Positions 3,001 to 32,401 of a DNA stretch of 64,000 nucleotides are shown piece after piece. The notes beneath the pieces are model-generated. The model searched no databases. It had not been told where the DNA came from and saw only the letters and a program-made list of their open reading frames with translations. The stretch comes from Neocallimastix sp. 'constans'. Its lineage: Eukaryota. The stretch lies in assembly GCA_050613775.1 (NCBI GenBank), contig JBODTK010000010.1, positions 806,001 to 870,000 of the forward strand, written 5' to 3'. A program made the translations under genes and the position numbers. How positions within the stretch are numbered: the first letter of the stretch is position 1; every line of letters begins with the position of its first letter.

Positions 3001-6000
3001 GCATCTGCTATGGTATCTTATTTAGGTGCATTTACATCTGCTTTTAGGCAAGAAGCTGTTAGTGACTGGAATAAAAAAATCAATGATAAAAATATTAAAT
3101 GTACTGAGAATTTCACACTTGAAAATACATTAGGTGATCCTATTCAAATCCGTTCATGGATTCTTTCAGGATTACCAAATGATACATTTTCTAAAGATAA
3201 CGGTATTATTTCATTTAATACAATAAGATGGCCGTTATTTATTGATCCGCAAGGACAAGCAAGTAAATGGATTAAAAATTTGGAAAAGAAAAATAATTTA
3301 TCAGTTATTAAATTATCCGATACTGATTTTATTAGAAATTTGGAAAATGCTATTCAGTTTGGTACTCCAGTATTAATTGAAAATGTTGGTGAAGAATTGG
3401 ATTCGGTATTAGAACCACTTTTAGTTAAACAATTATTTAAATCTAGTGGTGTATTATGTATAAAAATTGGAGATGATATTGTAGAATATTCTAACGACTT
3501 TAAATTGTATATAACAACAAAATTAAGAAATCCACATTATAAGCCAGAAATATTTACTAAAGTTACTGTATTGAACTTTATGATTACTCCAGATGGTTTG
3601 GAAGATCAACTATTAGGTATTGTTGCTGCAAAAGAAAGACCTGATCTTGAAGAAGAAAGAAATAAATTAATTGTAACATCAGCTGAAAATTCGAAACAAT
3701 TAAAAGAGTTAGAAGATAAAATTTTAGAACTTATATCATCTTTTGAAGGTAATATTTTAGAAGATGAATCAGCTGTTAATGTTTTATCATCTTCAAAAGC
3801 TTTATCTGATGAGATTGCAGAAAAACAAAAAATTGCACAACAAACTGAGAGAGAAATTGAAATTACTCGTACTGGATATCGTCCAATAGCAGTTCATTCA
3901 TCAATTCTATTTTTCGTTATTGCTGAATTAGCTAATGTAATTTAAATTAATACAAAATTAATTATTAGTTGATTTTATTAATAATATATATATACATTAT
4001 TTTTATATATTTTTTTATTAGATTGAACCTATGTATCAGTATTCTTTAGTATGGTTTATTAATCTCTTTTTACAATCAATTGAAGAAAGTGAAAAATCAA
4101 CAGATATCGAAGTTAGAATTAATAATTTAAAGAATTACTTCACATATTCATTATATTGTAATGTATGTAGATCATTATTCAAAAAAGATAAATTACTTCT
4201 TTCCTTTTTACTCTGTACAGGTTTAATGAAAAGTAAATCTGAAATAGATCCAGATGAATGGTCATTCCTTTTAACTGGTGGCTTAACATTAGATAATGAA
4301 ACATTACCTAATCCTGCTTCAGAATGGCTTACTAATAAAGCATGGAATGATATTACAAAACTATCAAAACTTCAAATTTTTGAAAAATTTGCAGATGATT
4401 TTTCGGTAATAATAATATATATTAATATTTTATATTATAAATTTATATTAAATTAAATTTTATGTTTATATAGAAACATGTTGATGAATGGAAAGTAATT
4501 TATGATAGTTCTGAACCATATAAAGAAATACTTCCCGGTGATTGGGAAAAGCATTTAACTATATTTCAAAAATTACTCATATATAAATGCTTAAGACCTG
4601 ACAAACTTGTTCCTGCTATTTTGGAATTTGTTAAAGTGAAAATGGGACAAAAATTTGTTGAACCACCACAGTTTGATCTTGCGGCTAGTTTCCAAGATTC
4701 AAATTGTTGTTCTCCACTTATCTTCATCTTATCACCTGGTGTAGATCCAATGTCAAGGTACTATTAATAATAATAAAAAAATTATATATATAATATATCA
4801 AAATAAGAATGTAAAAACTAAATTTTTAAAATGAACTTTTATTAAAAAAAATAGTCTTCTTCGTTTTGCCGAAAGTAAAGGTATTACTGGTCAAAAATTA
4901 ACGAGCATATCATTAGGTCAAGGTCAAGGACCAATTGCTAGTCAAATGATAAAAACAGGAACAAAGAATGGATCATGGATTGTACTCCAAAACTGTCATT
5001 TAGCAGTTAGTTGGCTTCCAACTCTAGAAAAAATATGTGAAGAATTAACCGTAGATAATACTAACAAAAACTTTAGATTATATTTAACCTCATATCCATG
5101 TGAAAAATTCCCTGTTACGATTCTTCAAAATGGTATTAAAATGACAAACGAACCACCAAATGGATTAAAAGCAAACCTTTTACGTTCATACACCAGTGAT
5201 CCAATATCTGATAGTTCATTCTTTAAAGGTGTTAAAAAGGAAGCTGAGGAAGTATGGGAAAAATTCTTGTTCGGATTAGTATTTTTCCATGCTATTGTTC
5301 AAGAACGTAGAAACTTTGGACCTCTTGGATGGAATATTCCATATGAATTTAATGAATCTGATTTGAAGATTAGTGTAAGACAATTACATAAATTCTTAAA
5401 TGTGTATGATGAAATTCCTCTTAAAGCTCTTCGTTATTTAACTGGTGAATGTAATTATGGTGGGCGTGTTACTGATGACCATGATAGACGATGTTTAATG
5501 AGTATTCTTTCAGTATATTACAATATGGATATTTTGAAAGATGGATTTAAATTATCAGATAGTGGAATTTATACAATTCCAACTAAAGGTACTTACGAAA
5601 GTTATTTAGAGCATATCAAACAATTTCCAATTATACAACATCCTGAAGTATTTGGCTTACATGAAAATGCAAATATTACAAAAGATATTAGTGAAACTAA
5701 CCTTCTTATTGATTCTGTTTTAATGACACAAGCCAGATCATCATCTTCTAGTTCGGGTACTTCATCAGATGATATATGCTATACTTGTGCAACTGAAATT
5801 CTTGAAAAATTACCTGAAAATTATGATATAAAATCAGCTATGAAAAAGTTCCCAGTTGTTTATTCAGAAAGTATGAATACTATTTTAATTCAAGAACTTG
5901 TAAGATTTAATAAACTTCTTGATGTTATTAGATCAAGTTTACAAAATATATTAAAAGCAATTAAAGGTTTAGTAGTTATGTCATCAGAATTAGAATTAGT

Positions 6001-7019
6001 ATATAATAGTTTACTAACAGGAAAAATTCCTGAAATGTGGAGTGCAAGTAGTTATCCATCACTCAAACCATTGGTAATATAATAATAGAACTATATAAAA
6101 ATTATATTAAATATTATATTCTATTAATAATTAATTTTAATAAAATATTTTTATTTAAAAAAAAAAAAAAAAAACAGGGTTCATATATTATTGATTTTAC
6201 TGAAAGATTGAAATTTTTCCAAAATTGGGTTGATACATCAACACCTGTTATTTTCTGGATTTCTGGATTCTTCTTTACTCAATCATTTATTACAGGTAAA
6301 ATGAAGTTTATTATAAATCTCAAATAATATTTAATAAATAAATTAAATGGAAAACATTAACAAACAATAAAATTTATATAATATGACAATTTAGTATAAT
6401 ATTTATTTGATTATATATTTATTTTTTTATTTAATCAATTTAAATTATTATAATATTATATAAAATATTTAATTTAAATAATTTAATAGGTACACTTCAA
6501 AATTATGCCAGAAAGCATAAGATTCCAATTGATCTGTTAGATTTAACATTTAAAGTTATGAAAGATAAACCTACTGATCATCCAGAAGATGGTGTATATA
6601 TTGAAGGTATGTTTATTGAAGGTGCAAGATGGGACAAAGCTGCTCATATATTAGCAGAACAATATTTAAAACAATTAACTGATGTTATGCCTATTGTATC
6701 CTTTTTTTCATATAAAATAAAATTTATTATTTATCTTCTATAATTTTTTTCATTTATATATTTGAAATAATTATATAATTATTTATTCTTAATAATAACA
6801 AATACACTGTAGATTCATATGATACCATCTAGATTAGAAGATATTGATAATAAAAATCTATATGATTGCCCAGTATATAAAACAAGTGCAAGAAGAGGTA
6901 CATTATCTACCACAGGCCATTCAACTAATTATGTTATGACCATAGGCTTACCTTCTAACAAGCCACAAGATCATTGGGTTATTAGGGGTGTAGCATTAAT
7001 TCTCCAACTTTCAGATTAA
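43..7019 (+). CDS. Axonemal (inner-arm type, DNAH3/7/12-like) dynein heavy chain, 5'-partial (AAA3 to C-terminus)
   Basis: P-loops GQTGTGKT and GLGGDGRQS, stalk/MTBD ([18 protein letters not shown]), [35 protein letters not shown]-terminal [23 protein letters not shown]. Inferred GT-AG exons: 43-3936, 4022-4405, 4474-4757, 4855-6073, 6178-6295, 6490-6695, 6813-7019. Confidence 0.95.
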
Positions 7020-7108
7020 ATAATTATAAATATTATCATCAGAATTATATATAGAATATAATATATTATTTCACATTTTTATTTTTTATAATATTTACAA
7101 CATGTTAC

Positions 7109-7139
<31 letters not shown>

Positions 7140-7782
7140 GTAATTTAATAATTAACATAAATTAATTTTCAATTGATAAAATATTTCAGTTTTTTTAAAT
7201 CGTTATAATTCTTATACACTAGTTATATAATGTTATTAATATTCAATTCAATAATAAATAAAGTTTAAACAAAATTAAATAATCGAAAATATATAAAATA
7301 AATATATATAAAATATTTATTTTAATAATGGAAAATTATTAAATTTATTGAAAAATAATAGAAAAAAAGTTAAAATATATAAGAACTTTAAATTCATTAG
7401 ACTTTTTTAAAATTAATTGGAATTAAAAATTTAAAAAGATAAAAAATCAAAATTTCATTTAAAGATAAAATTAATTTTAATTAAATGAAATAAAAAAAGA
7501 GTATTTTTTTTTTCCAATCTTAATATTAATAAATATTTTTTATATATTTATTAAAATTAATAAAACCAAAAATTACTGAACATTTTGAAAACTTTAATCT
7601 GAATGATAATTAATATATAAATTTGTATATACATATATATATATATATATTTTTTTTTTTTTTGAATCTTTATTTTAATTTTCATTGAAAAAAGTTTTCC
7701 CATATAATAACTTGTTATTACTATTATTAAAAATAATAATTCTAATATAATTATTATAATACTAATAACTAATATTATATTA

Positions 7783-7814
<32 letters not shown>

Positions 7815-7863
7815 TAACTATCAAATAAAAAATAAATTAAAATAAAAAAAAAGAAAAAGAAAA

Positions 7864-9382
7864 ATGGCAATAAGAGATAGATTATTAGAGCTTGAATATA
7901 TTGATGTAAATTTTTATTAATTAAAAAGGATGCATATAATATATATACAAACTAAATACTTTAAAATTCTATAATCAATGTCATAGGAGGGAAGCTCTCA
8001 AACACTGTATGAAGTTGAAATGGATGACAAAGAAAAGAATTGTGATACAATTTTTTTTGATAAAGTAATATTAAGTATAATTAAAAATATCATTACATAA
8101 TAATCAATAATAATAATTAAAAGTATTATACATATAGATAAATCAATTAAAAGCCAATCTTTATGAATGTTATAAGAATATAAATATAATAAAAAATTTA
8201 CAAAAAAAAGTTCTTATAAATATGTATAAAGAAAATGAAATTGGTATATATTAAATAAAAATTATACAAGTTCAAATTTAAGATTTATTTATATTTACTA
8301 TATTTTTATATCCCTATATATAATTTATATATATAACAACAGCAAAAACTAATAGCATGATTGATAATATGATAAATACAACAAACTCAAAAGTTCAATT
8401 TATTATAAATGAAATTAAAGGTTTATAATATATAATCAGATTTAAATATATATATATATATTATAACTAATATATGGATATTAAAAAAATTAGGATTGGA
8501 TTATGAACCATCTAGAATGAAATTATCGGAATCTGAATTTTTAATGAGAAAATCACAACAAAAAATTATGATGCATAAAGTAAAAGAATTTATTAAAGAA
8601 TTTACATTAATTCAGCAGGATTATGAACAAAAAATACAAGAAAGAATTATTAGACAATATAATATTGTTAATCCTGATGAAAATGTACAAAGTAATAATA
8701 ATATTGATAGACATACTCAAGTATTTGCAAATGAGGTACTTTTCTATAAAATTTCTAAAATAAATATTTTAATTTTTAAAGATATTAGATGTATAATTAC
8801 AAAACATGAATATAAATATATATATATATTAGTTGTTATCATCTAGCTTAAATAATAAAAAAAGAAAACATAATGAAGCTAAAACAATATATCAAAATAT
8901 GAAAGCAATAGAAAGATCTCTTTCAGTAAATTTTAAATATGATATAATTATAAAATTAATATTAATTAGAGAAATTTAAGAATTTACAATAATAAATATG
9001 AAAAAAAATTTAAATTTATAGGATTTATTTATGTTGTCTAAAGAGATTCAAATTTATCTTGAAAGTCAGAATGAAAAAATTAGTGATGTCCAAATTAAAG
9101 TAAATGAAGCTGAGACCAATGTTGAATCAGGAAATGAACAACTTACAACGGCAATAGAAAAAGGAAAATCAATAAGAAAAGTATTTAAATATTTTAATGT
9201 TATATTTATAAAATATATATATATTTAAATATTTAACTTTATAGATTAAAATATACTAAATAATCTTTTTTATAAATATTCATATTAATTATATTAATAT
9301 TAAGATATATAAATATTTCTTATATGTTGTAGCTTTCATATCTGTATTAGTGATAATATATCTTGCAATAATATTAATGTAA
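7864..9382 (+). CDS. Syntaxin-like Qa-SNARE, multi-exon
   Basis: N-terminal MAIRDRLLEL, Habc-like exon (FIKEFTLIQQDYEQKIQERIIRQYNIVNPD), SNARE motif exon (LESQNEKISDVQIKVNEAETNVESGNEQLTTA), final hydrophobic TM segment ending TAA 9380-9382. Internal exon borders approximate. Confidence 0.8.
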
Positions 9383-9405
9383 TTAATAGTTATTTCGACA
9401 TTTGA

Positions 9406-9589
<184 letters not shown>

Positions 9590-10130
9590 ATAATTAGAAC
9601 ATAGAAAGGCAGTATTAGTGATAATTAATATTATATATATATATATAAAAGCTATATATTTATTTAAATCTATTATAAGTAATAATAATATATTCTTAAT
9701 TTATTATTTTATATAAAAATTATATAAAAATTATTCTTAAAAGTTATTATTTACATAAATTTTAAATTAATGTATATATAAATAATGAATAAATGAAATA
9801 AAAGAAAGTTTTTATTTAAAAAACAATAAATTTATATAATAACATTTATACTTTTATACTTTTTAATCATGTATATAGAAGTTTTAATTTTATTTTATTT
9901 ATTTTTATTATATATGTAATATATATAGTATATATAATATATGTATATATATATATATTTTTCGTTCGTTTGTTTTGAATTATTTTTATTAAAAAATAAT
10001 AAATTAGAATAATAATTCAGATTATTAAATTTTAATTTTTATATATGCTTTAATTTCTAAGCTAATAATATAATTATTTATATGTAATAAATCATTTCCA
10101 ATTATATAATGTTTTAATTTTTTTTTTTCC

Positions 10131-12032
<1,902 letters not shown>

Positions 12033-12057
12033 TTTAATTAAATACTTAATTTTAAAA

Positions 12058-12096
<39 letters not shown>

Positions 12097-12439
12097 GTAA
12101 ATAATTAATTAATTAATTAATAATTAAAAAAAGAAAAAGAAAAAAAGAAAAATAAATTTAATTATTAATTTGAATATATTCAATTTTTAATTTTTTATCA
12201 ATTTTTATTATAGAAATTGATACTTTCAAAATAGTTCATTAACTAAAAATTAAATGAATTAAAAAACTATATTACTTATAATATTATCCTAATTTTATAA
12301 TAAATAATCATGTTTCCCAAATTATATTTTATAATTTTTACTTATAAATTATAATAAATAATTATTTATTTTTTAGAAAAAGTAAAACAAAAAATTATAA
12401 ATATGAAAAAAGTATAACTTAAACTATTTTTAAAAAATC

Positions 12440-12533
<94 letters not shown>

Positions 12534-12852
12534 GAAATAATAATAATTATTCCAATGATATTTAATAATATTAAAATAAAAATGATAAAATAAAGTTAAT
12601 AATATTAATAATAAAATTATAACATTTACAATAAAAAAAAGTTATTAGATATAACTAATTAAGTTTATATAAAAATAATACAATTCATATATTTAGAATT
12701 TTTTAATTTTATTTCAAATTTATTTTTGTTAATTAATAATAGATATTGAAAAATTTCAATATTAAAATTTTTAATTATTTATGTCTTTTTTTTATATATG
12801 CTTTTATGGGTATACTAATATTAGAATTTATTAAGATATTTTAATTATTTAA

Positions 12853-13599
12853 TTATTTAGTTTGATCATTTTTATTTTTTTCTGTCTTTATTTCGTCTTT
12901 TTCTTTTTCTTCTTTTATTAATTTTCTTTTTTTACTTTCTTTTTGCTTTTGACGCTTTTTACGACGTTTTTCTGTTTTTTTATCTTCTATTTCCTTTAAT
13001 TTATTCATTTTATCATCAAATTCTTTTTGATCTTGTTCCTATAATAATAATAATAATAATAATAAAAAGTTATTATATTCAACTTTATATATTTCATTGA
13101 CTTATATTTAATTTTATTTTATTTAAAAAAAAAATAAAGATACCTTTTTAATTTCTTCATTCATTAATTTTAATCTCATAAGTTCCTTTCTTCTTAATGC
13201 TCTATATACATGAAATTCTCCACTACCAGCACCAGCACTTGAACCTGTAAATTAGATATTATTTATTATATTAATAAAAATATATTAATTTATTATAAAT
13301 ATTAAATACTATTTTAAATATATAAAAATTAATTATAAAAAATAATTATTTATTATTTGAAAATTATCCATTTCAATTGTTAACAATAAAAAAATACCTT
13401 GAATATTTCTAATAAAATCTTTCGGTGGTTTTAATACAACGCCTTTATTTTCTGGAAGTACAATAGGTTTATCTATTCTTTTCATTAAATTTTCTATTTG
13501 AACCTTTTGAATTTCCTTTGCTGTTCTTGCTATTTTATTAACCTCATGTTCACTATCATTATCTTCATCTAATTTCGATGATTTAACTTTTTTATCCAT
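12853..13599 (-). CDS. PRKRIP1: PRKR-interacting protein 1 homolog (DUF1168 family, spliceosome-associated), 3 exons
   Basis: Spliced signature [24 protein letters not shown] followed by a basic coiled-coil tail ([13 protein letters not shown]). Exons approx. 13599-13398, 13246-13145, 13038-12853. Confidence 0.88.
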
Positions 13600-14787
13600 T
13601 TTTTATATAAATTCAAACAATTTAGTTTGCTCTTATAAAAATATATTATTCCCAGTTAATTATTTATATGCTTATTAAAAATAATAATAATAAAGTTGAT
13701 ACATTAATTAATATCCAATCATTCAAACATAATTATTTTATTGTACAAATATAATAAAATAATACATATTTTTGGATTAACTTAAATGAAATATAATTGC
13801 TATTTTTATTATTTTTTTTAATGGTTAAAGATATTAGAAACTATTTATATATTTTAAAAAAAAGGAAAGCATATATAATAAAATATATTAATATAATATA
13901 AAATTTTATACATAATATTTAAAAAAATATAAAAAAGCCAACAATAGAACGGAAAGAATTATTGGAAAAATAGAAAATAAAGATAAAAATTTAAATATCG
14001 ATTCGATTTTACTTATATAATAATAATATTATTTTTTTTATTTTATATTTAATATTATTATTAATCTTTATTACTATTTTTTTTTTTTCACACAGAAAAC
14101 ATATTTAAAATATTTTAAAATTTAAATTTATAATAAATATAATTAACATATATATATATATATAATATTTACAAGATTTTTACTTATGATTTTTGAATTA
14201 TTCAATATAAACTTTTAATAGAATATTGATTGATAAAAAAATAATTTATTAAAAACAATCGAGAAAATATATAAATATTAACTATTTGCTTTTCAATTTT
14301 CCTGTACTTCTTTTTTCCATATATATATAAATAATAAAATAAATTTTTTTAAAAAAAAAAAAGAAAAAAAAAATTATTAGAAAAATTATATATTTGTAAA
14401 AATTATTTTTAAACTTTAAAAAGTTTAAACCTATATTAATAATGGAAACATAATATTAAACATAATAAATTTTAATTTATATTATTATTTTATAAAAAAA
14501 AAAGTTATAAAGGCAAACATTTTATCAAATAAAAAATTTACTTTCAATTAGTAATATGCTTTTTATTAATAATTATTAAAAATATATATGTATGAAACCT
14601 ATTATTAAAAAAAAAAAAAAAGGAAAAAGAAAAAGAAATATATAAAAAAGAAAAAAAAAATAATAATAAATAAATAAATAAAATAATAATAATAATAATA
14701 AAAATAATAATAAAAATATAAAAAAAAAAAAAAGAAGTAAAAAAATATAAGAATTAATAGAACAAAAATAAATATATATATATACAA

Positions 14788-16356
14788 ATGAGAAGAGTAA
14801 TATTGTTTTTATCAATATTTACTATTTTTAAAAAGATAAATGCAGGAAAATTTCAAGGAAATTTAGTATTTTTTGGAAGAGGTCAAAGAACTTCACCGAA
14901 GTATTGGGGTGATATAAATCAAATAAAAGTTTCCAAGCAATCAAAAGTTTTTTACCCATATCATAAATATGATGATGATCCAACTTATACAGGATCTAGC
15001 GATGAAGCGAAAAACTATCCATTATCAATTTTTTTACCAGAAATAGATAGTAATAATCAATATTCAGAGGTAAGATTTGAAGCAGAAAGAACAGATTTTT
15101 TAAATCTTGCTGATTTTAGTTATTTAAATACAGAAATGAAAATTCGATATCCAGAAATAAAATATTTAATAAATGAAGGATATACCTGCCAAAAACTGGG
15201 TTTATCATGTACAGAAATTAATGAATATGATTTCAAAACAAATACAGATTGGTTGAAGAATATAGACTTAAAAATTTTTTTTGAGGACTATACAGTAACT
15301 CATAGTAATAAATATAGTGATGCAGAAAAAAAGGAAAAAAGTTATGAATTAAAAAATATGGAAAAGCCAACATTAGAATGGAAAGAACTTGTTGGAAAAA
15401 TAGAAAATATTGATAAAAATTTAAATTATACAAGTTTAATATTTAGAAACTATGGGAAAATGCCAGTATATCTCTCTATTGGAAATACAATATTTATAAA
15501 ATCAGAAGATGAGGATATACATGTTATTAAGAATGGGAAATTCAGTGAATATTTTGACAATAAAAATTGGTATGAAAATAGAGAAGACCACTATTCAACA
15601 GTTTATAGTGATAAAATTTGTCCTCTTGATTCTGAAAAAAAAACCTCTCTTTATTGTGCAGCCATAGAGAATTTTACTTATGGTGTTAAAGCAGTAATAT
15701 CTGAAAATGTACCAACTTTTGGACCACCTGAGGCAATTTCATTCAAATATAGAACAATACAGGATGATATTTTATTGAATGCACAGTTTAATGAAAAACT
15801 TACATTGTCTATAAATGAATATTTAAATGCTCGAGGTTGTCTATATAAAAAACAAGAAGAAGTCACCATTTTATTGGATTTAAAACATTACATTTTAATG
15901 GATTCAAAAAATTTAATGAGTAATGATGTATTTACTGTATGGTTACAAACGGTTACTGATATAGAAGCAATAAAGCATCAAATACTATTGCAAACCAAAA
16001 ATGAAACTTTAAGTAAGGCGTATGTTGAAGAATTATATTTTTATGATTTAACATTTCATAATAAATATCCAACTAATCTTGAACCCTATACATTATCTAA
16101 TTTATATACTAAAGAGAATTGTGATGTGTCATTACATGGATATAGTTATATTTTAAGTACGAAAAAGAGATGGCCCGATGATATTAAATTTGATAAAATG
16201 TATAATTCACAGAACATTGTTATAGGATATAACGATGAGATTGATGATAACAATAATAATGATTCTTCAAATAGTAAAAAAATTATATATAATTATAATT
16301 TCAAATTTAATATAAGTATTTTTATAATTACAATTATATATTTCTTTTTATTTTAA
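14788..16356 (+). CDS. Intronless secreted/surface protein of unknown function, 522 aa
   Basis: Signal-peptide-like N-terminus (MRRVILFLSIFTIFKKINA), globular body, N/S linker and hydrophobic C-terminal tail (ISIFIITIIYFFLF) compatible with a GPI/TM anchor. Confidence 0.75.
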   Translation: MRRVILFLSIFTIFKKINAGKFQGNLVFFGRGQRTSPKYWGDINQIKVSKQSKVFYPYHKYDDDPTYTGSSDEAKNYPLSIFLPEIDSNNQYSEVRFEAERTDFLNLADFSYLNTEMKIRYPEIKYLINEGYTCQKLGLSCTEINEYDFKTNTDWLKNIDLKIFFEDYTVTHSNKYSDAEKKEKSYELKNMEKPTLEWKELVGKIENIDKNLNYTSLIFRNYGKMPVYLSIGNTIFIKSEDEDIHVIKNGKFSEYFDNKNWYENREDHYSTVYSDKICPLDSEKKTSLYCAAIENFTYGVKAVISENVPTFGPPEAISFKYRTIQDDILLNAQFNEKLTLSINEYLNARGCLYKKQEEVTILLDLKHYILMDSKNLMSNDVFTVWLQTVTDIEAIKHQILLQTKNETLSKAYVEELYFYDLTFHNKYPTNLEPYTLSNLYTKENCDVSLHGYSYILSTKKRWPDDIKFDKMYNSQNIVIGYNDEIDDNNNNDSSNSKKIIYNYNFKFNISIFIITIIYFFLF

Positions 16357-16587
16357 ATGTTAATTGGTAAAAAGATTTCCATATTAAAACATTAAATAAT
16401 TATATTAATAATATTAATGATTTTTTTTTTAAAAAAAAAAAAAATAATTGATATTATTTCAAATAAAAGTTATAAACTTGTAATAACTTTTATTTATTAT
16501 TAAAATAATTATTTTAAAAATTAATTATTTTTTTATTTTTAAATATTTTATTTTTATGATTCTTTTTTTAATTTTTATTTAATTATG

Positions 16588-16629
<42 letters not shown>

Positions 16630-17648
16630 CATCATTTTCATTTTATTTATTATGTTTTTGTTTATATATTGATAATATCTTTATATTTAATTAATATAAT
16701 ATTTTATTTATCTTTATTTTAAAATAATAATATAATAATAATAATAATATATAAAAATATATAAATAATATTTATTTTATAAATATGAATATAATGAAGA
16801 AAATAAAACTTCTTGAATTATATTAAATTTCTATAATATTTAAATTTAAATTGATATTTAGATTCAAAGTAAAACACCTCATATTATTTAAAATATATAT
16901 ATATATATTTCTTTGTTTTTTTAAATATTAACGATTATTAATTTTCAAATAAATATTAGTTGTTACTTATTAACATGATTTATTATTATTTAATTTATTA
17001 TATTGAATTTCTATTAACTAAGTTATAATATTATTTCTTTAACATAATATATTTATAAAATAAAAAAAAAAAAAAAAAAAAAAAAAAAAGTGTTTTTACC
17101 CATTTAGTAAACTAGGTTTAAAATTTAAAATTTGAAATTACGTTGATATTTAATAATATTCAAAATATTCAAATACTTTTATTAAAACTTTAATTATTAT
17201 TAAAAAATATATGTATATATATTTTAAAAATACATGAAAAAGGAAAAATAAAAGGAAAAAGGAAAAATAAATAAAAATTGAAGGAAAAATTATATGTAAG
17301 TTTAAAAAATATTAAATTCGGAAGACAATTTGATTTGTTATATAGCTTATTTCATTTTTTTTTTATTAATACCAGATATACTAGTTATAACCATTTTTCC
17401 ATTATTTGATTATATATTAAAATTCAATTTTTTTTATATTTTGATGTTAAAGTGATACTGAATAAATAATAAATTAATAGTTATATAAAAAAAAATATAT
17501 TTATATATATATATATATTTTTAAAGACTTCAATTAAATCAAATTCTTGAAAGTTATCATTAATATAAGTACTCCTAATTCCTCTATACATATACACATA
17601 CATTCCTTATGCTTACTATTTTTTTTTAATATTTTCTTTATTTTTTAA

Positions 17649-18005
17649 TTTTTTTTTTTTTAGTAGAATTATTGTGAACTTTGAGTTATTTATTCATTTA
17701 TCAATAACATGAATATTTTTTTTAAAAAAAAGCACACAATTAAAAAAAAAATAATTATTATTTGTTCAATTTGAATATAATAATATTTTAAATAGTAATG
17801 TGAAATAAAAATAATATTCAAAGTAAAATGAATTAATAAATTCAGAAAAAAGTTCATATGCAGGAACCTCACCTCCAGATTATAAGGTTTATGTTTAAAG
17901 GAATTCTTATTCCGTTCTAGGTTTGAATTGACAATTTGAAAGAAATTATGATCTTCTTCTTCAATGGCATTGGCCTGTCTTATTGTATTTTCAGAATCAA
18001 CACTA
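17649..18005 (-). repeat. Left inverted arm (poly(A)-tailed on minus strand)
   Basis: Reverse complement aligns with 19925-20290 (shared block CTTATAATCTGGAGGTGAGGTTC..TGCAT.TGAACTTTTTCTGAATTTATT); ends in T-run 17649-17661. Confidence 0.8.
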
Positions 18006-18079
18006 CTGGTTAATTTGAATTTACACTGTTGGAATAGCAATCTTTATCGAATACCAACCCAAGTCATAATTTCTGAAAT

Positions 18080-19910
18080 GAGATTGAATAAAATAAAATA
18101 AAATAAAATAAAATAAATAGTAGAATATAAATATAAAGTACAGATTGAATAAAATAAAATAAAATAAAATAAAATAAAATAAAATAAAATAAAATAAATA
18201 GTAGAATATAAATATGAAGTACAGATTGAATAAAATAAAATAAAATAAAATAAAATAAAATAAATAGTAGAATATAAATATGAAGTACAGATTGAATAAA
18301 ATAAAATAAAATAAATAGTTGAAATATAAATATGAAGTACAGATTGAATAAAATAAAATAAAATAAAATAAATAGTAGAATATAAATATAAAGTACAGAT
18401 TGAATAAAATAAAATAAAATAAAATAAAATAAATAGTAGAATATAAATATGAAGTACAGATTGAATAAAATAAAATAAAATAAAATAAACAGTAGAACAC
18501 AAACATGAAGTACAGATTGAATAAAATAAAATAAAATAAAATAAATAGTAGAATATAAATATGAAGTACAGATTGAATAAAATAAAATAAAATAAAATAA
18601 ATAGTAGAATATTAAATATAAAGTACAGATTGAATAAAATAAAATAAAATAAAATAAAATAAAATAAAATAAATAGCAGAATATAAATATGAAGTACAGA
18701 TTGAATAAAATAAAATAAAATAAAATAAATAGTAGAATATTAAATATAAAGTACAGATTGAATAAAATAAAATAAAATAAAATAAAATAAAATAAAATAA
18801 AATAAATAGCAGAATATAAATATGAAGTACAGATTGAATAAAATAAAATAAAATAAAATAAAATAAAATAAAATAAAATAAAATAAAATAAAATAAAATA
18901 AAATAAAATAAAATAAAATAAAATAAAATAAATAGTAGAATATGAATATAAAGTACAGATTGAATAAAATAAAATAAAATAAAATAAAATAAATAGTAGA
19001 ATATAAATATGAAGTACAGATTGAATAAAATAAAATAAAATAAATAGTTGAAATATGAATATAAAGTACAGATTGAATAAAATAAAATAAAATAAAATAA
19101 ATAGTAGAATATTAAATATAAAGTACAGATTGAATAAAATAAAATAAAATAAAATAAAATAAAATAAAATAAAATAAATAGCAGAATATAAATATGAAGT
19201 ACAGATTGAATAAAATAAAATAAAATAAAATAAAATAAAATAAAATAAAATAAAATAAAATAAAATAAAATAAAATAAAATAAAATAAATAGTAGAATAT
19301 GAATATAAAGTACAGATTGAATAAAATAAAATAAAATAAAATAAAATAAATAGTAGAATATGAATATAAAGTACAGATTGAATAAAATAAAATAAAATAA
19401 AATAAAATAAATAGTAGAATATGAATATAAAGTACAGATTGAATAAAATAAAATAAAATAAAATAAAATAAATAGTAGAATATGAATATAAAGTACAGAT
19501 TGAATAAAATAAAATAAAATAAAATAAAATAAATAGTAGAATATGAATATAAAGTACAGATTGAATAAAATAAAATAAAATAAAATAAAATAAATAGTAG
19601 AATATGAATATAAAGTACAGATTGAATAAAATAAAATAAAATAAAATAAAATAAAATAAAATAAAATAAAATAAAATAAAATAAAATAAAATAAAATAAA
19701 ATAAAATAAAATAAAATAAAATAAAATAAAATAAAATAAAATAAAATAAAATAAAATAAAATAAAATAAAATAAAATAAAATAAAATAAAATAAAATAAA
19801 ATAAAATAAAATAAAATAAAATAAAATAAAATAAAATAAAATAAAATAAAATAAAATAAAATAAAATAAATAGTAGAATATGAATATAAAGTACAGATTG
19901 AATAAAATAA
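18080..19910. repeat. Compound tandem array: conserved ~36-bp unit interspaced by variable (AAAAT)n
   Basis: About 24 copies of AAATAGTAGAATATRAATATRAAGTACAGATTGAAT separated by a few to ~50 AAAAT units; explains the FILFY ORFs. Confidence 0.92.
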
Positions 19911-19924
19911 TACAAACATTAGGA

Positions 19925-20290
19925 GAGTCAACGCTGAAAATGCTGTAAGACAGGCTAGTAGGGCCAATGTCTCTAAAGGAGAAGACCATAATTTTTTACA
20001 GATAGTAATTTAATTCCTTTTAAATCAAAGATCTTATAATCTGGAGGTGAGGTTCGTTGCATGTGAACTTTTTTCTGAATTTATTTATACGCCTTATTTT
20101 GAATATTACATTTTATTTAACATTATTATTTAAAATATTATTATAGTCTAATTGGAAAAATAATATTATTTTTTTTACTAATTCAAAGTTTTTTTTTTTA
20201 AAAAATATTCATAGAATTAATAAATTAATAAATAAATTAAGTTTAAAGTTCGTAATAATTGCATCTGTAAAAAAAAAAAAAAAAAAAAAA
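19925..20290 (+). repeat. Right inverted arm (poly(A)-tailed on plus strand)
   Basis: Diverged inverted copy of 17649-18005; ends in A-run 20269-20290. Confidence 0.8.
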
Positions 20291-20387
20291 TACAAGCATT
20301 ATACTTATACACACCAAAAACAATAATAATAAAGTTTTTGTATATTTTAAATTAAAAAAAATAATATCCTTTATAAGGATTAATTAT

Positions 20388-21709
20388 TTAAATTTTATCA
20401 TTGTATATTCCAGTAATAATTTTTGCTGATACGGAAGATAAACTATCTTCAACGCCGTATAAAATATTTTCTAAAACGCTATAAGGATCTTCAAAGGATA
20501 ATTTTGAAATAAATGAGTAATCATCATTTTTCATTCCAAAACGTGACATTGGTACGATGGTATCATTCCGACACATGATGTTAGTAAGTAATTCAATATG
20601 TTGATTATTGTAGTACGATTTATCGATATTAGTAATTCGTTTTAATTGCTCTAGAATATTTTGTTTTCGAGTGTTATGATCAACTTGTTTTGAAGTACCA
20701 TAAACAGTATAACGAGAACGATCAAGATCAATATATTGATTTTCGAAAAGAGGGTCAAGATTTCTTCCGACGACTTCCACGTAAAATTCTTCTTCTCCAA
20801 GCATTTTAGAAGAGACAGTTTTTACTCCTTTAGTTCCTGTTAAAGAAATATCATTAAGTAATTTGAAAATTTTTTCATATTTAATTTCAACATAATTACT
20901 ATCAAATATATAGTAATTTTCTTTTTCTTCAAACGTTAAATTATTTATTTTAAAATAATCTAATAAGCTATCGTTAGTAATATTTGAATCATTTTTAATT
21001 TCGATATGACTTTCTTCATCATTTTTATTTTGGGTATGAAAATTTTCTTCATATTTCCATTCATTTTTATTCTGTTCGTTATCACTTAAAACATATTTAT
21101 CATTGTAGTCATCATCACTTTCTAAGTTTATTACGTTATTAGGACAATTTTCTTTTACTTTATAAACACATAATATATCTTCTTCAACAGTATATTCTAT
21201 ACCATTACTATCTAACCAGTCTAATATTTTTGAAGCTGGGTTTTTAAATTCAATATAAAGATTCTCAAGATTAAATGAAGAATCCCACTTTCCAAGAATG
21301 TTATTAGAATCTTTTAAATATTGTTTAATAGTTTGGTGTATGATGACTCTGTTTTATTGTGAGTTATATTATACAACTCTTTCAAATCATTAATTGTATC
21401 ATCGCCTGTAAGTTTATGAAAATAACTCAAAGCTGACTGAGTGACCGGTTCTCCAATTGACTGAGCCGCTAGAATTCCAACATGAGTATTTGCTGTCACT
21501 TTATGTGAATTAATATGATTTATAACTATTTTAACAAATTCATCGGGTTTAAAATTTGGCGATTTCCTTTTTTGTTCAAGAAATTTTTTAATTTTTTGAA
21601 GTAGATTTTTAATGCATACTTGAAAATGAATAATCTCATTAGAAAATGGATTAGATATTTTATTACAAATATTATTAATGTCTGATTCAGAAAAATATTC
21701 TTTACTCAT
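20388..21709 (-). CDS. Stand-alone C-terminal half of multisubunit RNA polymerase largest subunit (RpoA''/Rpb1 domain 5-7-like), ~440 aa, one 1-bp frameshift; probable viral origin
   Basis: VGILAAQSIGEPVTQSALSYFH (trigger-helix/loop), LNDISLTGTKGVKTV, VEVVGRNL, HIELLTNIMC..VPMSRFG..SFISKLSFED..GVEDSLSSVSAKIITG. Adding one A in the run at 21332-21334 gives one open frame from ATG 21709 to stop 20388. Confidence 0.88.
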
Positions 21710-22327
21710 TTATTTTTAAATACTTTTATTAATTTTGCTTTATGAAAATGTATATATTATTATCATTTTATTTAAGAAATATAAATGTAAATAAAATTTT
21801 TACATCTATATAATAATTTTTTTTTTTTTTTTTTTTTTTTTTTGTAATTAATTATTACGTTAAATTTAAAATAAAGATAACAATAAATTTAATTTATTAC
21901 ATGGATTAAAGAAATCAATAAAATTAGTTGATTTGATGAAATATTTTTTTTTGTTTTAAAAAATATAAACTAAATATATATATATAAACCATAATTTTTT
22001 AAATATATAAACAATAAAAAATATATATATAAAACATAATCTTATATTATTATCGTTATTTATAATATATGCAATATAGTAAATAATTTGGTTTGAATTT
22101 TATTTTTAATATATCGTAAATTAATTAAAACTTTAAATAAAATTTATAGGCATAGTAACTATAAAAAATAAACTTTTTTATCTTAGATCTTAGATAAAAT
22201 TATTAATTTATATTATTTTAGAGAGAGTTTTATGTATTTTTTTCTTTTTTTTTTTTAAAAAAAAAATAATCAAATTAATAGGTCAATAATTTATATAATA
22301 TATCTATTATAAATTATTATAACTTTT

Positions 22328-25300
22328 TTATTTAAATTCCCAAACTTTATCACCTTTTTCTATATAGTCTTGAACAAAAAGGAAAAACAAATAATGGACA
22401 GAATCTGATATTTTTTCATTTGATTGGTTTCCTTTACTTTTGATTATTTTATAGTAGTGTTGAGATGTTGCTATTCTTTCAATAATAGGATCTTTTTTAG
22501 TAGATACTGTGGATACTATGTCTTTATTGGAAGAGGAAGAAAAAGAGGAGGAGGAGGAAAATAACAATTCTAATTCCTGCTCCAGATGGTTCTCTCTATC
22601 ATCATAATTATAATTTATATTTTTAGATTCATTATCATTATCATCATTATAATCATTATCATAATCTTTATTATTATTATCATTATCATTATCATAACAG
22701 TTATTTTTACTATTATTTTTAACATTAATTTTATTATTACATTTGATAGTACTATATTTATTATCATATTCATATTTATACTCATATTCATTTTCTTTTT
22801 TATTCCAATTTACATTATTGTCCATTTCAGAATTGTTTTTTGATGACTGTGCTTCATTTATTTTTAAATTTTTTGCTTTATCACTTTCAATGGATAAAGA
22901 TAGATATTTTTTTACTTCTTGTGAGTTTTTTATATTTGACTTTTTTTCTTCAATTTTGCTATCTAATTCAATCATAGATGATTTTAATATTTCTTTGTTT
23001 AATAGGTCGACGTCCATAAAATTATCATTCATATGAGGTTTATGCTTTATTTCATTTTCTCTTTTTTCTTTATTTTTATTGATTTCTTCTTTGTTTATTT
23101 TTTCAATATCCATTTCTAAAAAATAGGGTATAATAGTTAATGACGAAGTAGGGGATAAAGGAGTTATTGTGGAATCCTCAGAATTTTCAGTAAATATGGA
23201 TGATGAAGATGAAAATGTAAGTGTATGAGTAGGTGAGGAAGGAAGAAGATATCGATTAATACTATTATCAGAATAGATCTCATTACTATGATATTGATTT
23301 CCAGAGGTACTACTAATTAATTCTAATTCTGTATCAGTATCCATTTCTGTATTCATCTCCATATCATCAGAGATATCCAAATTTATGATTTCTGACGTTG
23401 GGGTATCTATATTCATCTCATGATCATAATCATAATCATTTTCATTTTCACTTCCTTCTGTTTTAATTTCCTTTAACATTATTGATGATAATAATTTTCT
23501 TTGTGAATTTTGAATTTCAAAAATTGAATTATTACTATTTGTATTATTGCTTGAACTATAATATGAGTTGCTACTATTATTTTTAATACTTTTTATGAAA
23601 GGACTGTTATTATTGTCAGAAGATTTATATATTTTTTTTTTCTTCATAGATTTAAGTTCATTAATTAAATCACCTTCTAAAATTGTATTAGGATCATTAT
23701 TTGGATAAGAATTATCATTTTTTCCTATTTCATCTATTGTTGCATATTCTCTATAAGGAATAGGTGAATATAAATGAGTAGAAGAGGTAGAAGAAGTTGA
23801 ATTTAATAATAATGGTGAAGAAGGAAGGGCAGAAGAAGAAGTTGATCTTAATAATAATGGTGATGATAATGATGAATTTGAAGGAAGAGATAATATAGAA
23901 CTATTAGGAGAAGAGGTATTCTTTAATATATCATTACTAGATGAATTAGATGGAAGTAAAAAAAAATCATTGGTAGTAGTATCTTCTAAATGTTCAATTT
24001 CAACTTCTTTATTTTCCATACCACCGATATCATTTAAATTTAGTTCATCTAAAGCCTCTCCATTTAATTCCTTCATTGTTATGGATAATGCTGATGAGAG
24101 TGTGGTGGTAGATAATAATGGACTAGCATGATGGGTTAGATATTCTTTTAAAATGATTTCATTCTTCATGAGGGGATCACTAGATATAATATTATCAATT
24201 TTATCTATATCAATTATCTTATTATTATTATTATTGGTATTATCAATATCATTATCAATATCATTATCAATGTCATTATCAATGTCATTATCAATGTTAT
24301 TATCAATGTCATTATCAATATCACTGTCAATGTCATTATCAATGTCATTGTCAATATCATCAATATCATTATCAATATTATTATCAATATCATTATTAAT
24401 ATCATTATCAATATCATTATCAATATCATTATCAATATCATTATCAATATCAAAATCAATGTTATTGTCAATGTCATTATCGATGTTACCGTTATTTTCA
24501 TTTTCATTTTCTAATTCTTTTGTTTTGATCATTTCCTGTTCTATTATATCATCATTAAAAATATTTTTGTTTCTTTCATTTTTCTTTATCTCAATGTAGT
24601 TATCATGTAGTTCTTCATCAAAAGATTTAATTTTCATCAAACTGTTATCATTAAAATTATTTTCTTCTTTTTTAATTCTTTCCCATTCTATTTTATCTTT
24701 ATATAATAAAAATTTCTCTACTATTTCATTATTATTTGTTTTTTGTTGATCTCTTTCCATATTATTTTCAAAAATATTTAAAATATTTTCATTTTTCACT
24801 TTTTCTTGCCTTTTACTGTCTTCAAATGATAAGTAAATTTTTTGTATTACTTCATCGTCAATATTTTTAATATTACTTTTATCTATTTTGGAAAAATCTT
24901 CTTTTTTAATTTTCTTCCATTCTTCGATCTTTTCAAGAAATTCATCATTAACTGATTTTTCATCTTTATCAGTTAAGAGCTGTACTCCTTTAGTTTTACT
25001 TTCATTGGCACTCAAGGATTCATTCAGTAATTTTTCTTTTTTTATTTTCTTATTTTCAAATAATTCATCATTTTCTTTTGGTTCATTATTATCTTTTATA
25101 ATTTTGAAATTTTCCATATTATTTTCATCAAAACTTGATATAGATTCCTCTTTTTTAATTTTTTTCCATTCTAATATTAAATTTTTAAATTCTTCATTAT
25201 CATCACTATCATTAAAATTATTCTTTTCTTGGTTATTCCTGAACTCATTTAAAATAATATTTTCTTGTTGGTTTAGTGAATCTTCCCTTTTAATTTGTTT

Positions 25301-26812
25301 CCAGTTTAATACGTTAACATAATTATCATTTAATGAAGTATCATTGTCTGTAAATTTTATCTTTGCAATACTTTGTTCTTCTATATTTGAAGAAACTTCT
25401 TTTTTAATTTTTTCAAATTCTTTTATCCAATATTTAATATACTCTTTATTATTGTTTTCATTTTTATCATTTTTATTCATAATTCTATTATGTATATTTT
25501 CATTATTTTCAAAATATTTAACCTTTTTTTTATTATCACTAATATATTTATTACTTTTTTTAATACTTTTCCAGTCCATAATTATATTTTTATATTCTTC
25601 ATTATTTTTACTGGAATTAGTATTATTTAATATATCTTTAAGGTATTTAATTTTTTCATTAATATTTTTATTTTTATAAAAAGATACTTCTTCTTCTCTA
25701 TTAATTTTTTCCCATTCTATTTTTGTTTCAATGTCATCAGGTTTAAAAAAAGTTCTATAACTATTGAGATTGACATCTAAATTTTCTTCTTCATAATAAG
25801 TTCTTTTTTTATTTTTCTTATCTTCTTCTTCTTCTTCTTCTACTTCATTACTAATAAGTTTTTCATTCTTAATTTCCCTAAAATCAATGGAATCATTTTC
25901 AAAAGTTTCTTCATATTGAGCTTTATCATTATATTCTTTTTCTTCTTCTTCTTCTTCTTCTTTTTCTTCTTCTTCTTCTTCTTCTTTTTCTTCTTCTTCT
26001 TCTTCATTACTAACAAAATTTCCATGATTAATATCTTTTATATTTTCAAAAGAAGCGTTTTCATAATTTTTTTCCATATAAATAATTAAATGATGATCAC
26101 CATTTTCTTCAATATACTTTGAATTCTTGATATTACTCATATCGTCACTTTCATTTTCATAATAATTAATTTTTTGGTTTTCAATTTTTTTTAAACTCAA
26201 TAAATTATTTGAGCATATTTTCTTTTCAAATTTCTTATCTTTTTGATTTTTCTTAATTTTCTCTTCAATATATTGAATTTTTTTAATACTATCTTCTTTA
26301 TCAAATAATTCTTCGTTATCATTCATTTCTAACTCTAATAAATTTTGATATGAATCATCTCCAGAGTTGCTATTTTCGTTAAAATTTTCACTTTTTTTGT
26401 TTCTTTCATTATTATTTATTATTTTATTTTTATTAATATCTTCAATTTCATTCACATTGATAGAACTATTTTGATTTTCTATTTCTTCTTTTTCACATTC
26501 AGTTGATAAATAATAATCATTATTTTTTATAATTCCATTACTTTTGGATTGTTTCTTATTATTTTTATTTATATTATCGCCATGAAAATCAACATCATTA
26601 TCACTATCATTATCATTATTACTATCACTTTCATTGATTTGAGTAACAGATATTTTCTTTCTTTTCTTTATTTCATTTCTTCCATTTGGAATTTTATTTT
26701 TTCTTTTTCTTTTGTTTAATTCATCTTCTTTACTCTTGAAATAAGTTTTCAAATGTCCTATTAACCTTTTTTTTAATTCCATATTAAAATCTTCTATATC
26801 TTGAGTATTCAA
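22328..26812 (-). CDS. Long low-complexity (N/E/K/D/S-rich) exon, probably the terminal exon of the MULE-derived gene
   Basis: 1494-codon open frame with no ATG start (TTG call), recurrent EWKKIKKEE-like motif and DNDI repeats (24238-24480). A phase-compatible ttag acceptor lies near 26827. Confidence 0.6.
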   Translation of the reverse strand: MNTQDIEDFNMELKKRLIGHLKTYFKSKEDELNKRKRKNKIPNGRNEIKKRKKISVTQINESDSNNDNDSDNDVDFHGDNINKNNKKQSKSNGIIKNNDYYLSTECEKEEIENQNSSINVNEIEDINKNKIINNNERNKKSENFNENSNSGDDSYQNLLELEMNDNEELFDKEDSIKKIQYIEEKIKKNQKDKKFEKKICSNNLLSLKKIENQKINYYENESDDMSNIKNSKYIEENGDHHLIIYMEKNYENASFENIKDINHGNFVSNEEEEEEKEEEEEEEKEEEEEEEKEYNDKAQYEETFENDSIDFREIKNEKLISNEVEEEEEEDKKNKKRTYYEEENLDVNLNSYRTFFKPDDIETKIEWEKINREEEVSFYKNKNINEKIKYLKDILNNTNSSKNNEEYKNIIMDWKSIKKSNKYISDNKKKVKYFENNENIHNRIMNKNDKNENNNKEYIKYWIKEFEKIKKEVSSNIEEQSIAKIKFTDNDTSLNDNYVNVLNWKQIKREDSLNQQENIILNEFRNNQEKNNFNDSDDNEEFKNLILEWKKIKKEESISSFDENNMENFKIIKDNNEPKENDELFENKKIKKEKLLNESLSANESKTKGVQLLTDKDEKSVNDEFLEKIEEWKKIKKEDFSKIDKSNIKNIDDEVIQKIYLSFEDSKRQEKVKNENILNIFENNMERDQQKTNNNEIVEKFLLYKDKIEWERIKKEENNFNDNSLMKIKSFDEELHDNYIEIKKNERNKNIFNDDIIEQEMIKTKELENENENNGNIDNDIDNNIDFDIDNDIDNDIDNDIDNDINNDIDNNIDNDIDDIDNDIDNDIDSDIDNDIDNNIDNDIDNDIDNDIDNDIDNTNNNNNKIIDIDKIDNIISSDPLMKNEIILKEYLTHHASPLLSTTTLSSALSITMKELNGEALDELNLNDIGGMENKEVEIEHLEDTTTNDFFLLPSNSSSNDILKNTSSPNSSILSLPSNSSLSSPLLLRSTSSSALPSSPLLLNSTSSTSSTHLYSPIPYREYATIDEIGKNDNSYPNNDPNTILEGDLINELKSMKKKKIYKSSDNNNSPFIKSIKNNSSNSYYSSSNNTNSNNSIFEIQNSQRKLLSSIMLKEIKTEGSENENDYDYDHEMNIDTPTSEIINLDISDDMEMNTEMDTDTELELISSTSGNQYHSNEIYSDNSINRYLLPSSPTHTLTFSSSSSIFTENSEDSTITPLSPTSSLTIIPYFLEMDIEKINKEEINKNKEKRENEIKHKPHMNDNFMDVDLLNKEILKSSMIELDSKIEEKKSNIKNSQEVKKYLSLSIESDKAKNLKINEAQSSKNNSEMDNNVNWNKKENEYEYKYEYDNKYSTIKCNNKINVKNNSKNNCYDNDNDNNNKDYDNDYNDDNDNESKNINYNYDDRENHLEQELELLFSSSSSFSSSSNKDIVSTVSTKKDPIIERIATSQHYYKIIKSKGNQSNEKISDSVHYLFFLFVQDYIEKGDKVWEFK

Positions 26813-27099
26813 CTTTTTTATGTTCTCTAATTCAAAGTTTCCAATAAATATATATATATATATATAAATAAATATATAAATATAAATATATGAATAAATA
26901 AATGAATGAATAAATAAATGTATAAATATTTATATGTATATAAATTTTTTCTTTATTTATAGACCTCTATTTCTATCTATCTATCTATATTAAATATATA
27001 TTTATATTTATAAAGTGATTATTTATTATTATAATTTAAAATTCAATTTTCAATAAAGAGCTCTATTATAATTACCAAGGATAAAATTATAAATATAAC

Positions 27100-32401
<5,302 letters not shown>

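Follow-up and report, generated by a model that had tools for sequence, protein, structure and literature searches.

A deletion-broken fundsalphavirus RP1c gene in gut-fungal DNA and its possible donor, a high-copy virus-derived element

Results and Discussion

We describe here a solitary gene for the C-terminal part of the largest RNA polymerase subunit, located on the minus strand at positions 20388-21709 of a 64,000-nucleotide stretch of Neocallimastix DNA (hereafter, the window). We are highly confident that it is a broken copy of the RP1c gene of the 'fundsalphavirus' elements. The best reading of its donor is a plasmid-like remnant of a Pimascovirales-type virus. More specifically, the window may hold a single deletion-broken RP1c, embedded in host DNA, of a high-copy element of about 50-55 kb that is probably extrachromosomal and is predicted to have no capsid, and we give this full scenario an even chance.

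The window copy is a recent pseudogene

Two overlapping frames were found, one of 131 amino acids (21709-21314, minus strand) and one of 321 (21353-20388, minus strand). The former starts with an ATG and contains QSIGEPVTQSALSYFH. Both match the Pfam family RNA_pol_Rpb1_5 (E 1.1e-9 and 1e-5), as well as the C-terminal part of solved Rpo1C/Rpb1 chains, which agrees with the original prediction of a stand-alone C-terminal Rpb1 gene with its own ATG. Matches of seven long Rpb1-type proteins to the window were confined to 20391-21709, thus the N-terminal (catalytic) half is absent from the window, and no intron is required, as intact homologues are colinear with the window gene; both features had been correctly predicted.

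On the other hand, the gene had also been described as a nearly intact frame of about 440 amino acids with a 1-bp indel at 21332-21334, and this proved to be wrong. When aligned with an intact contig (L001), the window sequence is 181 nt short at the point where 21347 meets 21346, and about 180 extra letters are present at 21346 in single contigs of X16, X2 and X15, i.e., three runs from three studies. Relative to the intact family protein, which has 500 amino acids (P0004), the window copy is about 60 codons short and shifted in frame, and thus bears no intact reading frame. The 5' part of the pseudogene (21347..21709, minus strand) comprises the ATG at 21709 and the first 121 codons, and past 21347 its frame continues out of register to the stop at 21314. 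Within it, the codons of the trigger helix and trigger loop, QSIGEPVTQSALSYFH (residues 83-98, with the His kept), lie at 21416..21463 on the minus strand. The deletion junction, which causes the frameshift, is at 21346..21347, and the 3' part (20388..21346, minus strand) corresponds to residues 182-500 of the intact protein and is 93% identical to P0004.

The window copy differs from L001 at 42 of 1480 aligned nucleotides, and its homologous frame is free of stop codons. A 181-nt deletion set against intact 500-amino-acid copies that are 97% identical marks the window copy as a recent pseudogene. Its dN/dS against L001 is 0.50 (14 synonymous and 28 non-synonymous differences; p 0.052 against neutrality), while intact loci gave 0.28-0.45 in six of six pairs. 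The RP1c family is under purifying selection, and the sequence of the window copy fits a recent capture from this functional family. Therefore, of the two possibilities that had been raised for the near-intact frame, recent capture is favored by the low number of differences and the absence of stops, whereas retention under selection is contradicted by the loss of 181 nt and by the solitary state of the fragment.

The gene is the RP1c of published fundsalphavirus elements

Gong, Zhang and Han (2020; PMC7017919) described fundsalphavirus elements in Neocallimastix californiae, Piromyces, Anaeromyces and other early-diverging fungi. According to their maps and trees, the common genes are a Pithovirus-related PolB, D5, a D6/D11-like helicase, a SAM methyltransferase, RPB2 and RPB5, and RPB1 is split into RP1n and RP1c. 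RP1c stands in a fixed block with PolB, the D5 primase-helicase, UDG, RP1n, RPB2, the D6/D11-like helicase and the SAM methyltransferase; in N. californiae the genes usually run ChtBD1, methyltransferase, UDG, RPB2, D5, DnaJ, POL, RP1c, helicase, RP1n, as read from the layout of the supplement, in which columns may be offset (PMC7017919).

Three homologues, P0007, P0015 (Anaeromyces robustus) and P0023 (Piromyces finnis), are 54%, 68% and 62% identical to the gut-fungal protein P0001, and their longest contigs have 119,790, 64,180 and 127,315 bp, respectively. Contigs of exactly these lengths appear in PMC7017919 with POL and RP1c (Fig. S2) and in an RPB1 clade (Fig. S6), a link made by matching lengths and species rather than by accession. 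As the window gene is homologous to RP1c on the published fundsalphavirus contigs over its whole length, and the three homologues lie on contigs mapped with POL-RP1c, we consider it to be the same gene, which has thus been described before. Linkage to fundsalphavirus PolB, D5, RPB2, RP1n and helicase is lacking in the window copy, which is a fragment; for the homologues, linkage to PolB holds in the published maps (PMC7017919).

In full-length family members (439-552 amino acids) the start Met lies 79-99 residues before the QSIGE motif, and no close fused relative was found among 112 longer matches, all of which are distant. All 13 full-length members have the trigger loop EPVTQ(S/L)AL(S/N)YFH with an invariant His, in line with the original description of a drifted loop that keeps this residue. 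The conserved Gln, Leu and His are presumably equivalent to the substrate-contacting Q1078, L1081 and H1085 of yeast Rpb1. Nuclear Rpb1, Rpa1 and Rpc1 are unsplit, include the catalytic N-terminal part and have TQMTL(N/K)TFH, with a CTD in Pol II; the window gene has neither the unsplit chain nor this motif.

A second RP1c lineage, the P0179 cluster, 44% identical, was found in the same Neocallimastix assemblies and also on 13-29-kb contigs from metagenomes; a single host may thus carry two elements. Another feature is that ChtBD1 chitin-binding genes recur in the gut-fungal block, and a Zancudomyces copy lies beside LysM/ChtBD1/GH18 zymocin-alpha-like domains, comparable to yeast killer plasmids (both in PMC7017919, Fig. 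S2).

The intact gene greatly exceeds host DNA in read depth

We compared contigs from 8 of 24 listed read runs, and the other 16, with a low share of sequence words, were not used as evidence. In X4, X5 and X8, which come from three studies, long contigs equal the host flank without a single difference and include intergenic DNA; these runs therefore behave as DNA of a near-identical strain, their library type being our guess and not on record. The intact gene was present in single contigs at a depth of 3670-4240 against a flank of 30.1 in X4, 3678-4239 against 24.7-26.7 in X5, and 5167-6000 against 47-48 in X8, which gives ratios of 107-172. The baseline of AT-rich intergenic contigs is lower (19.2 in X4 and 17.5 in X5), and with it the ratio would rise. 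Such an excess suggests that the element still multiplies, probably outside the chromosomes, even if the depth of assembled contigs cannot separate an episome from a chromosomal array.

The remaining runs are less telling. X15 and X16 hold the whole gene in assemblies without matching host flank, and X12 also has the gene without such flank. In X1 (S1) the summed depth is about 6,000-23,000 against 7.7, and this library may be RNA; the summed depths of X1 and X12 were left out of the ratio, since each is a sum over numerous small contigs that overlap and the type of library is not known. In X2, an RNA library, the gene reached only 10-13 against a flank of 2.9-8.9.

A high-copy element of about 50-55 kb as a possible donor

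Gene order, unit size and lack of a capsid are taken from the supplement of PMC7017919, which rests on BLAST-level searches, and from contig sizes. One P. finnis contig bears two PolB copies of like orientation at a distance of 53.9 kb, and 22 of 26 N. californiae PolB loci are on contigs of at most 82 kb (PMC7017919). Similar sizes come from the 90% cluster of P0004, which has 57 members, many of them intact: among 15 listed Neocallimastix members, seven have a longest contig of 49-65 kb, and metagenome relatives lie on contigs of up to 52,796 bp. The MCP and A32 trees of PMC7017919 have no gut-fungal entry.

We propose that RP1c would join RP1n and RPB2 in a minimal RNA polymerase, to which it would contribute the trigger loop, the jaw and the end of the clamp, and that the element would be transcribed by this enzyme in the cytoplasm. 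PolB, D5 and UDG would copy it to more than 100 per host genome by replication of the NCLDV type instead of a protein-primed one, and the element might be inherited vertically like a plasmid, as yeast virus-like elements are (PMC6211774). Its pieces may occasionally be captured into chromosomes by DNA repair, where they would be under no selection and decay, and the window copy may be one such fragment.

One might ask, however, whether the intact copies are themselves chromosomal, i.e., 100-170 integrated units, in tandem or dispersed, that spread as a self-synthesising mobile element or were amplified like rDNA, with the window copy as one decayed fragment among them. We consider this rather unlikely. 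In its favor, the depth ratio is rather even across three runs, as an array would give, and many distinct 500-amino-acid variants are common, letter for letter, to two Neocallimastix assemblies, some of them on contigs of 137 kb to 1.57 Mb; the head-to-tail pair of P. finnis and the treatment of all elements as integrated in PMC7017919 point the same way. It is more difficult to reconcile with integrated copies that contigs of 15-53 kb assemble in gut metagenomes and that the S1 ratio is roughly ten times higher, provided that this library is DNA. Moreover, an own RNA polymerase, an early-factor-like helicase and a methyltransferase fit cytoplasmic life, and an integrase is not named among the common genes (PMC7017919).

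A donor that still forms virions, namely a Pimascovirales-type virus that persistently infects the fungus and whose capsid genes would have escaped notice through strong divergence or a location beyond the mapped block, seems to us improbable. High depth would fit its active replication, the nearest kin are giant-virus RP1c proteins on contigs of up to 505 kb, persistent giant viruses are described in other zoosporic fungi, and PMC7017919 argues for cross-species transmission. Nevertheless, the absence of gut-fungal MCP or A32 from the published trees, an apparent unit that is small for the Pimascovirales-type group, and the lack of a match among IMG/VR viral contigs all speak against such a virus.

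Split point and profile match are those of stand-alone viral subunits

A profile search over 1.84 billion representatives revealed, beyond the family, many stand-alone proteins of 405-600 amino acids. Their relatives occur on IMG/VR viral contigs, where 32 of 79 motif-bearing loci are stand-alone, and nine of these 32 are named as giant-virus MAGs. The distance from the start to QSIGE is 79-82 residues in 10 of 10 gut-fungal family members and 79-85 in 29 of the 32 stand-alone forms on viral contigs, as opposed to 59-66 in seven of eight archaeal proteins. The profile-profile match from residue 1 gave E 1.2e-40 for virus-like RP1c versus 4e-23 for archaeal Rpo1C, these profiles differing in depth. 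P0004 scored 86.2 bits with the archaeal model TIGR02389 (cut-off 420.65), far below the 394-515 bits of all ten archaeal controls, and thus falls outside archaeal Rpo1C. Judged by these comparisons, the split point and the best profile match are those of stand-alone giant-virus RP1c and not of archaeal Rpo1C.

Phylogeny was less decisive. The family grouped with stand-alone virus-like RP1c (SH-aLRT 96) in a quick tree of 52 rows and 387 columns, built without fungal Pol I/II/III sequences, but groupings with archaea (p 0.078), Pol II (0.115) or Pol I (0.108) remained acceptable in AU tests. In an earlier tree without stand-alone viral rows the family sat on a long, unplaced branch. Of the checks that had been suggested, the profile search matched virus-like RP1c best, whereas the phylogeny rejected none of these three cellular groupings. 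The top named fold matches, obtained with a structure model of low confidence (pLDDT 52), were Pithovirus subunits and a 423-amino-acid ascovirus protein; the best solved-structure matches were archaeal Rpo1C. In the ESM Atlas the first match was a 90% viral cluster of 452-amino-acid proteins, and separate N- and C-terminal RPB1 genes are listed for ascoviruses (PMC12655742).

Other scans gave little. No relative was found in IMG/VR with P0001, the family alignment or P0325 by the patterns used, nor in GTDB genomes; a metagenome scan yielded four contigs only (1.6-1.9 kb, too short for neighbours), and phage records gave six weak matches limited to the trigger-loop region. Egoviruses were considered as kin and set aside, as the preprint text mentions no fungi and reports a split PolB, not a split RNApolA. 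The stand-alone RP1c-like proteins nearest to the gut-fungal family, P0325 and P0346, have a trigger loop without the His (SSFKK/SSFKT) and possibly belong to related elements of other hosts.

These results support a donor among the large DNA viruses or virus-like elements of gut fungi and disfavour both a host paralog and a transfer from a methanogen, as had been proposed from the start. A cellular origin, either from archaeal rpoA'' of gut methanogens or from a fast-evolving piece of host Pol I, II or III, could appeal to the solved-structure matches, the AU tests and the missing fungal Pol I/II/III rows, yet we regard it as highly improbable in view of the viral split point and profile match, the TIGR02389 scores and the lack of a fused close relative, and the published maps, which show a link to viral PolB, largely refute it (PMC7017919).

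Junctions of the insert and its host surroundings

Upstream of the gene, an AT-rich leader (21710..21748, minus strand), common to L001 and L002, ends with TAAATG at the start codon and might be a viral promoter or initiator; the upstream end of the insert lies approximately at 21750-21790. The 3' trailer occupies 20360..20387 (minus strand). Beyond 20360 high-depth copies continue with other sequence, and this position is likely the left junction of the insert. At the insert, no target-site duplication or terminal repeat was found beyond A/T runs. A retrocopy origin was rejected for now: the 3' end has no sense-strand poly(A), and promoter-like upstream DNA is included.

A contig of X4 (record 16) crosses the 20360 junction in the window form with no differences, at a depth of 15.8, which is that of a single copy. 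Among the listed contigs, none bridges the deletion junction with 31 letters on each side, and none properly bridges the upstream junction, but contigs drop rare variants and such missing bridges are therefore not evidence of absence. An assembly artefact, i.e., host DNA chimerically joined to a read of an element about a hundred times more abundant, with a false deletion, would be in keeping with these unbridged junctions and with the window's own alleles being mostly missing from the contigs examined, but is hardly credible given the X4 contig, an X2 contig (record 19) that equals 21341-21526 without difference where the high-depth form differs at five or more places, and the loss of rare variants from contigs.

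The neighbourhood is host-like, with dynein heavy chain exons, a WD40 gene and LTR-retrotransposon ORFs (recognized from translations, WD40 by Pfam), as well as a 1.8-kb AATAA array. P0001 matches a gene model of Neocallimastix lanati at 100% identity, and its ten named matches (24 matches in total) are all from anaerobic gut fungi. A comparison with 1064 giant-virus ORFs from 80 viral loci gave no match elsewhere in the window, thus the RP1c copy is solitary, without PolB or another element gene, and the search for an N-terminal half or other viral gene nearby ended negatively within the window. Rfam gave no matches in the window either.

Relation to known systems

The window gene shares with the fundsalphavirus elements its gene family, hosts (Neocallimastix, Piromyces, Anaeromyces), RP1n/RP1c split, many copies per assembly and the occurrence of broken copies among retrotransposons; it differs in being solitary (PMC7017919). 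That paper, working without read depth, reads the elements as fossils, while here the intact gene exceeds host depth more than a hundredfold. Pimascovirales-type viruses with split RPB1, such as ascovirus (ORF008/ORF067, PMC12655742), Pithovirus and giant-virus MAGs, likewise have a stand-alone C-terminal subunit of 410-500 amino acids that starts about 80 residues before QSIGE and is alignable from residue 1. The differences are a profile identity of only about 24%, a gut-fungal trigger loop drifted to EPVTQSALSYFH, an Asn-rich insertion, a shortened C-terminus and no capsid gene known beside it. Archaeal Rpo1C (RpoA'') shares the separate chain and a similar fold, but the gut-fungal RP1c fails TIGR02389 widely and has another start point.

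Like pGKL2 (ORF6/ORF7; PMC6211774), it would be a DNA element of viral descent that lacks a capsid, has a split RNA polymerase of its own along with helicase and capping functions, and uses a TAAAT-like start; chitin-binding genes map to the gut-fungal block (PMC7017919). The pGKL elements have their own protein-primed DNA polymerase, terminal proteins and a fused beta/beta' subunit (PMC6211774), whereas the gut-fungal element has an NCLDV-type PolB, D5 primase-helicase, UDG and separate RPB2, RP1n and RP1c. By this comparison it is best regarded as an analogue of pGKL and not a member; the position of PolB beside Pithovirus and the separate RPB2 (PMC7017919) speak against membership. Mycodnaviridae are likewise giant viruses with a lasting presence in zoosporic fungi, where they are integrated and sometimes amplified, but they reach 350 kb, code for capsids, are related to Imitervirales/Algavirales and live in other hosts (PMC13533422). 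Neither Neocallimastigomycota nor RNA polymerase is mentioned in the main text of that paper, which regards earlier fungal elements as distinct.

That this gene family exists, is split and is of viral descent has been known since 2020, and thus the window copy alone is ordinary. In a literature search that covered few subscription papers, we found no report that such elements of gut fungi occur at high copy number or in an extrachromosomal state; the term 'fundsalphavirus' occurred in only one paper of the literature searched, and the main-text matter of PMC13533422, PMC12198294, the egovirus preprint and PMC9546926 does not include such a state. It is therefore worth stating a bolder idea, to which we give somewhat less than an even chance: the fundsalphaviruses of anaerobic gut fungi may not be fossils but still alive, as capsid-less plasmids that measure about 50-55 kb, are inherited vertically, number more than 100 per genome, derive from a pithovirus/ascovirus-type giant virus and are present in laboratory cultures. 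A DNA virus would then have become a cytoplasmic plasmid in fungi a second time, independently, and the resemblance to yeast killer plasmids, chitin-binding cargo included, would be convergent. If the donor is indeed self-replicating, the rumen fungi kept in culture harbour a replicon of giant-virus descent whose transcription machinery is among the most reduced of the NCLDV, and the transition from giant virus to plasmid becomes testable. This would also explain the many small repeated contigs in gut-fungal assemblies and might provide a native high-copy vector for gut fungi, which have few genetic tools.

Sequence variants and other features of the window

L001 (1-1675) combines an intact ORF bearing 31 of 35 high-depth alleles with the window's 3' flank (20269-20360), a region where high-depth copies diverge; it may be a second variant or else a chimera of the assembly. 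Before TAAATG stands an A-run of 5 nt in the window (21710-21717), 18 in L001 (34-53) and 4 in L002 (30-43); this may be allelic variation or an assembled trace of 5' poly(A) leaders made by slippage, as in poxviruses and yeast virus-like elements. A 9-nt in-frame insertion at window position 21099 is polymorphic among high-depth copies (present in the kept path of X5 and at depth 1800 in X8, absent from X4), and a 503-amino-acid RP1c variant exists.

Beside the insert, an inverted pair of about 280 nt, 80% identical (17639-17905 and 20012-20292), flanks the AATAA/61-mer array (18081-19870, 1.8 kb). Its right copy (20012-20292) has a summed depth of about 46,000 in X8, and the pair is probably a high-copy repeat or foldback element. 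Several frames in the window have no Pfam match: an intronless one of 531 amino acids with a signal-peptide-like start and a hydrophobic end (14761-16356), and, with none above threshold, a low-complexity acidic frame of 1533 amino acids (22328-26929) and one of 688 (28096-30162). Finally, the segment 33383-58132 holds a series of LTR-retrotransposon frames recognized from their translations, one copia-like and three gypsy-like, some of them long and uninterrupted.
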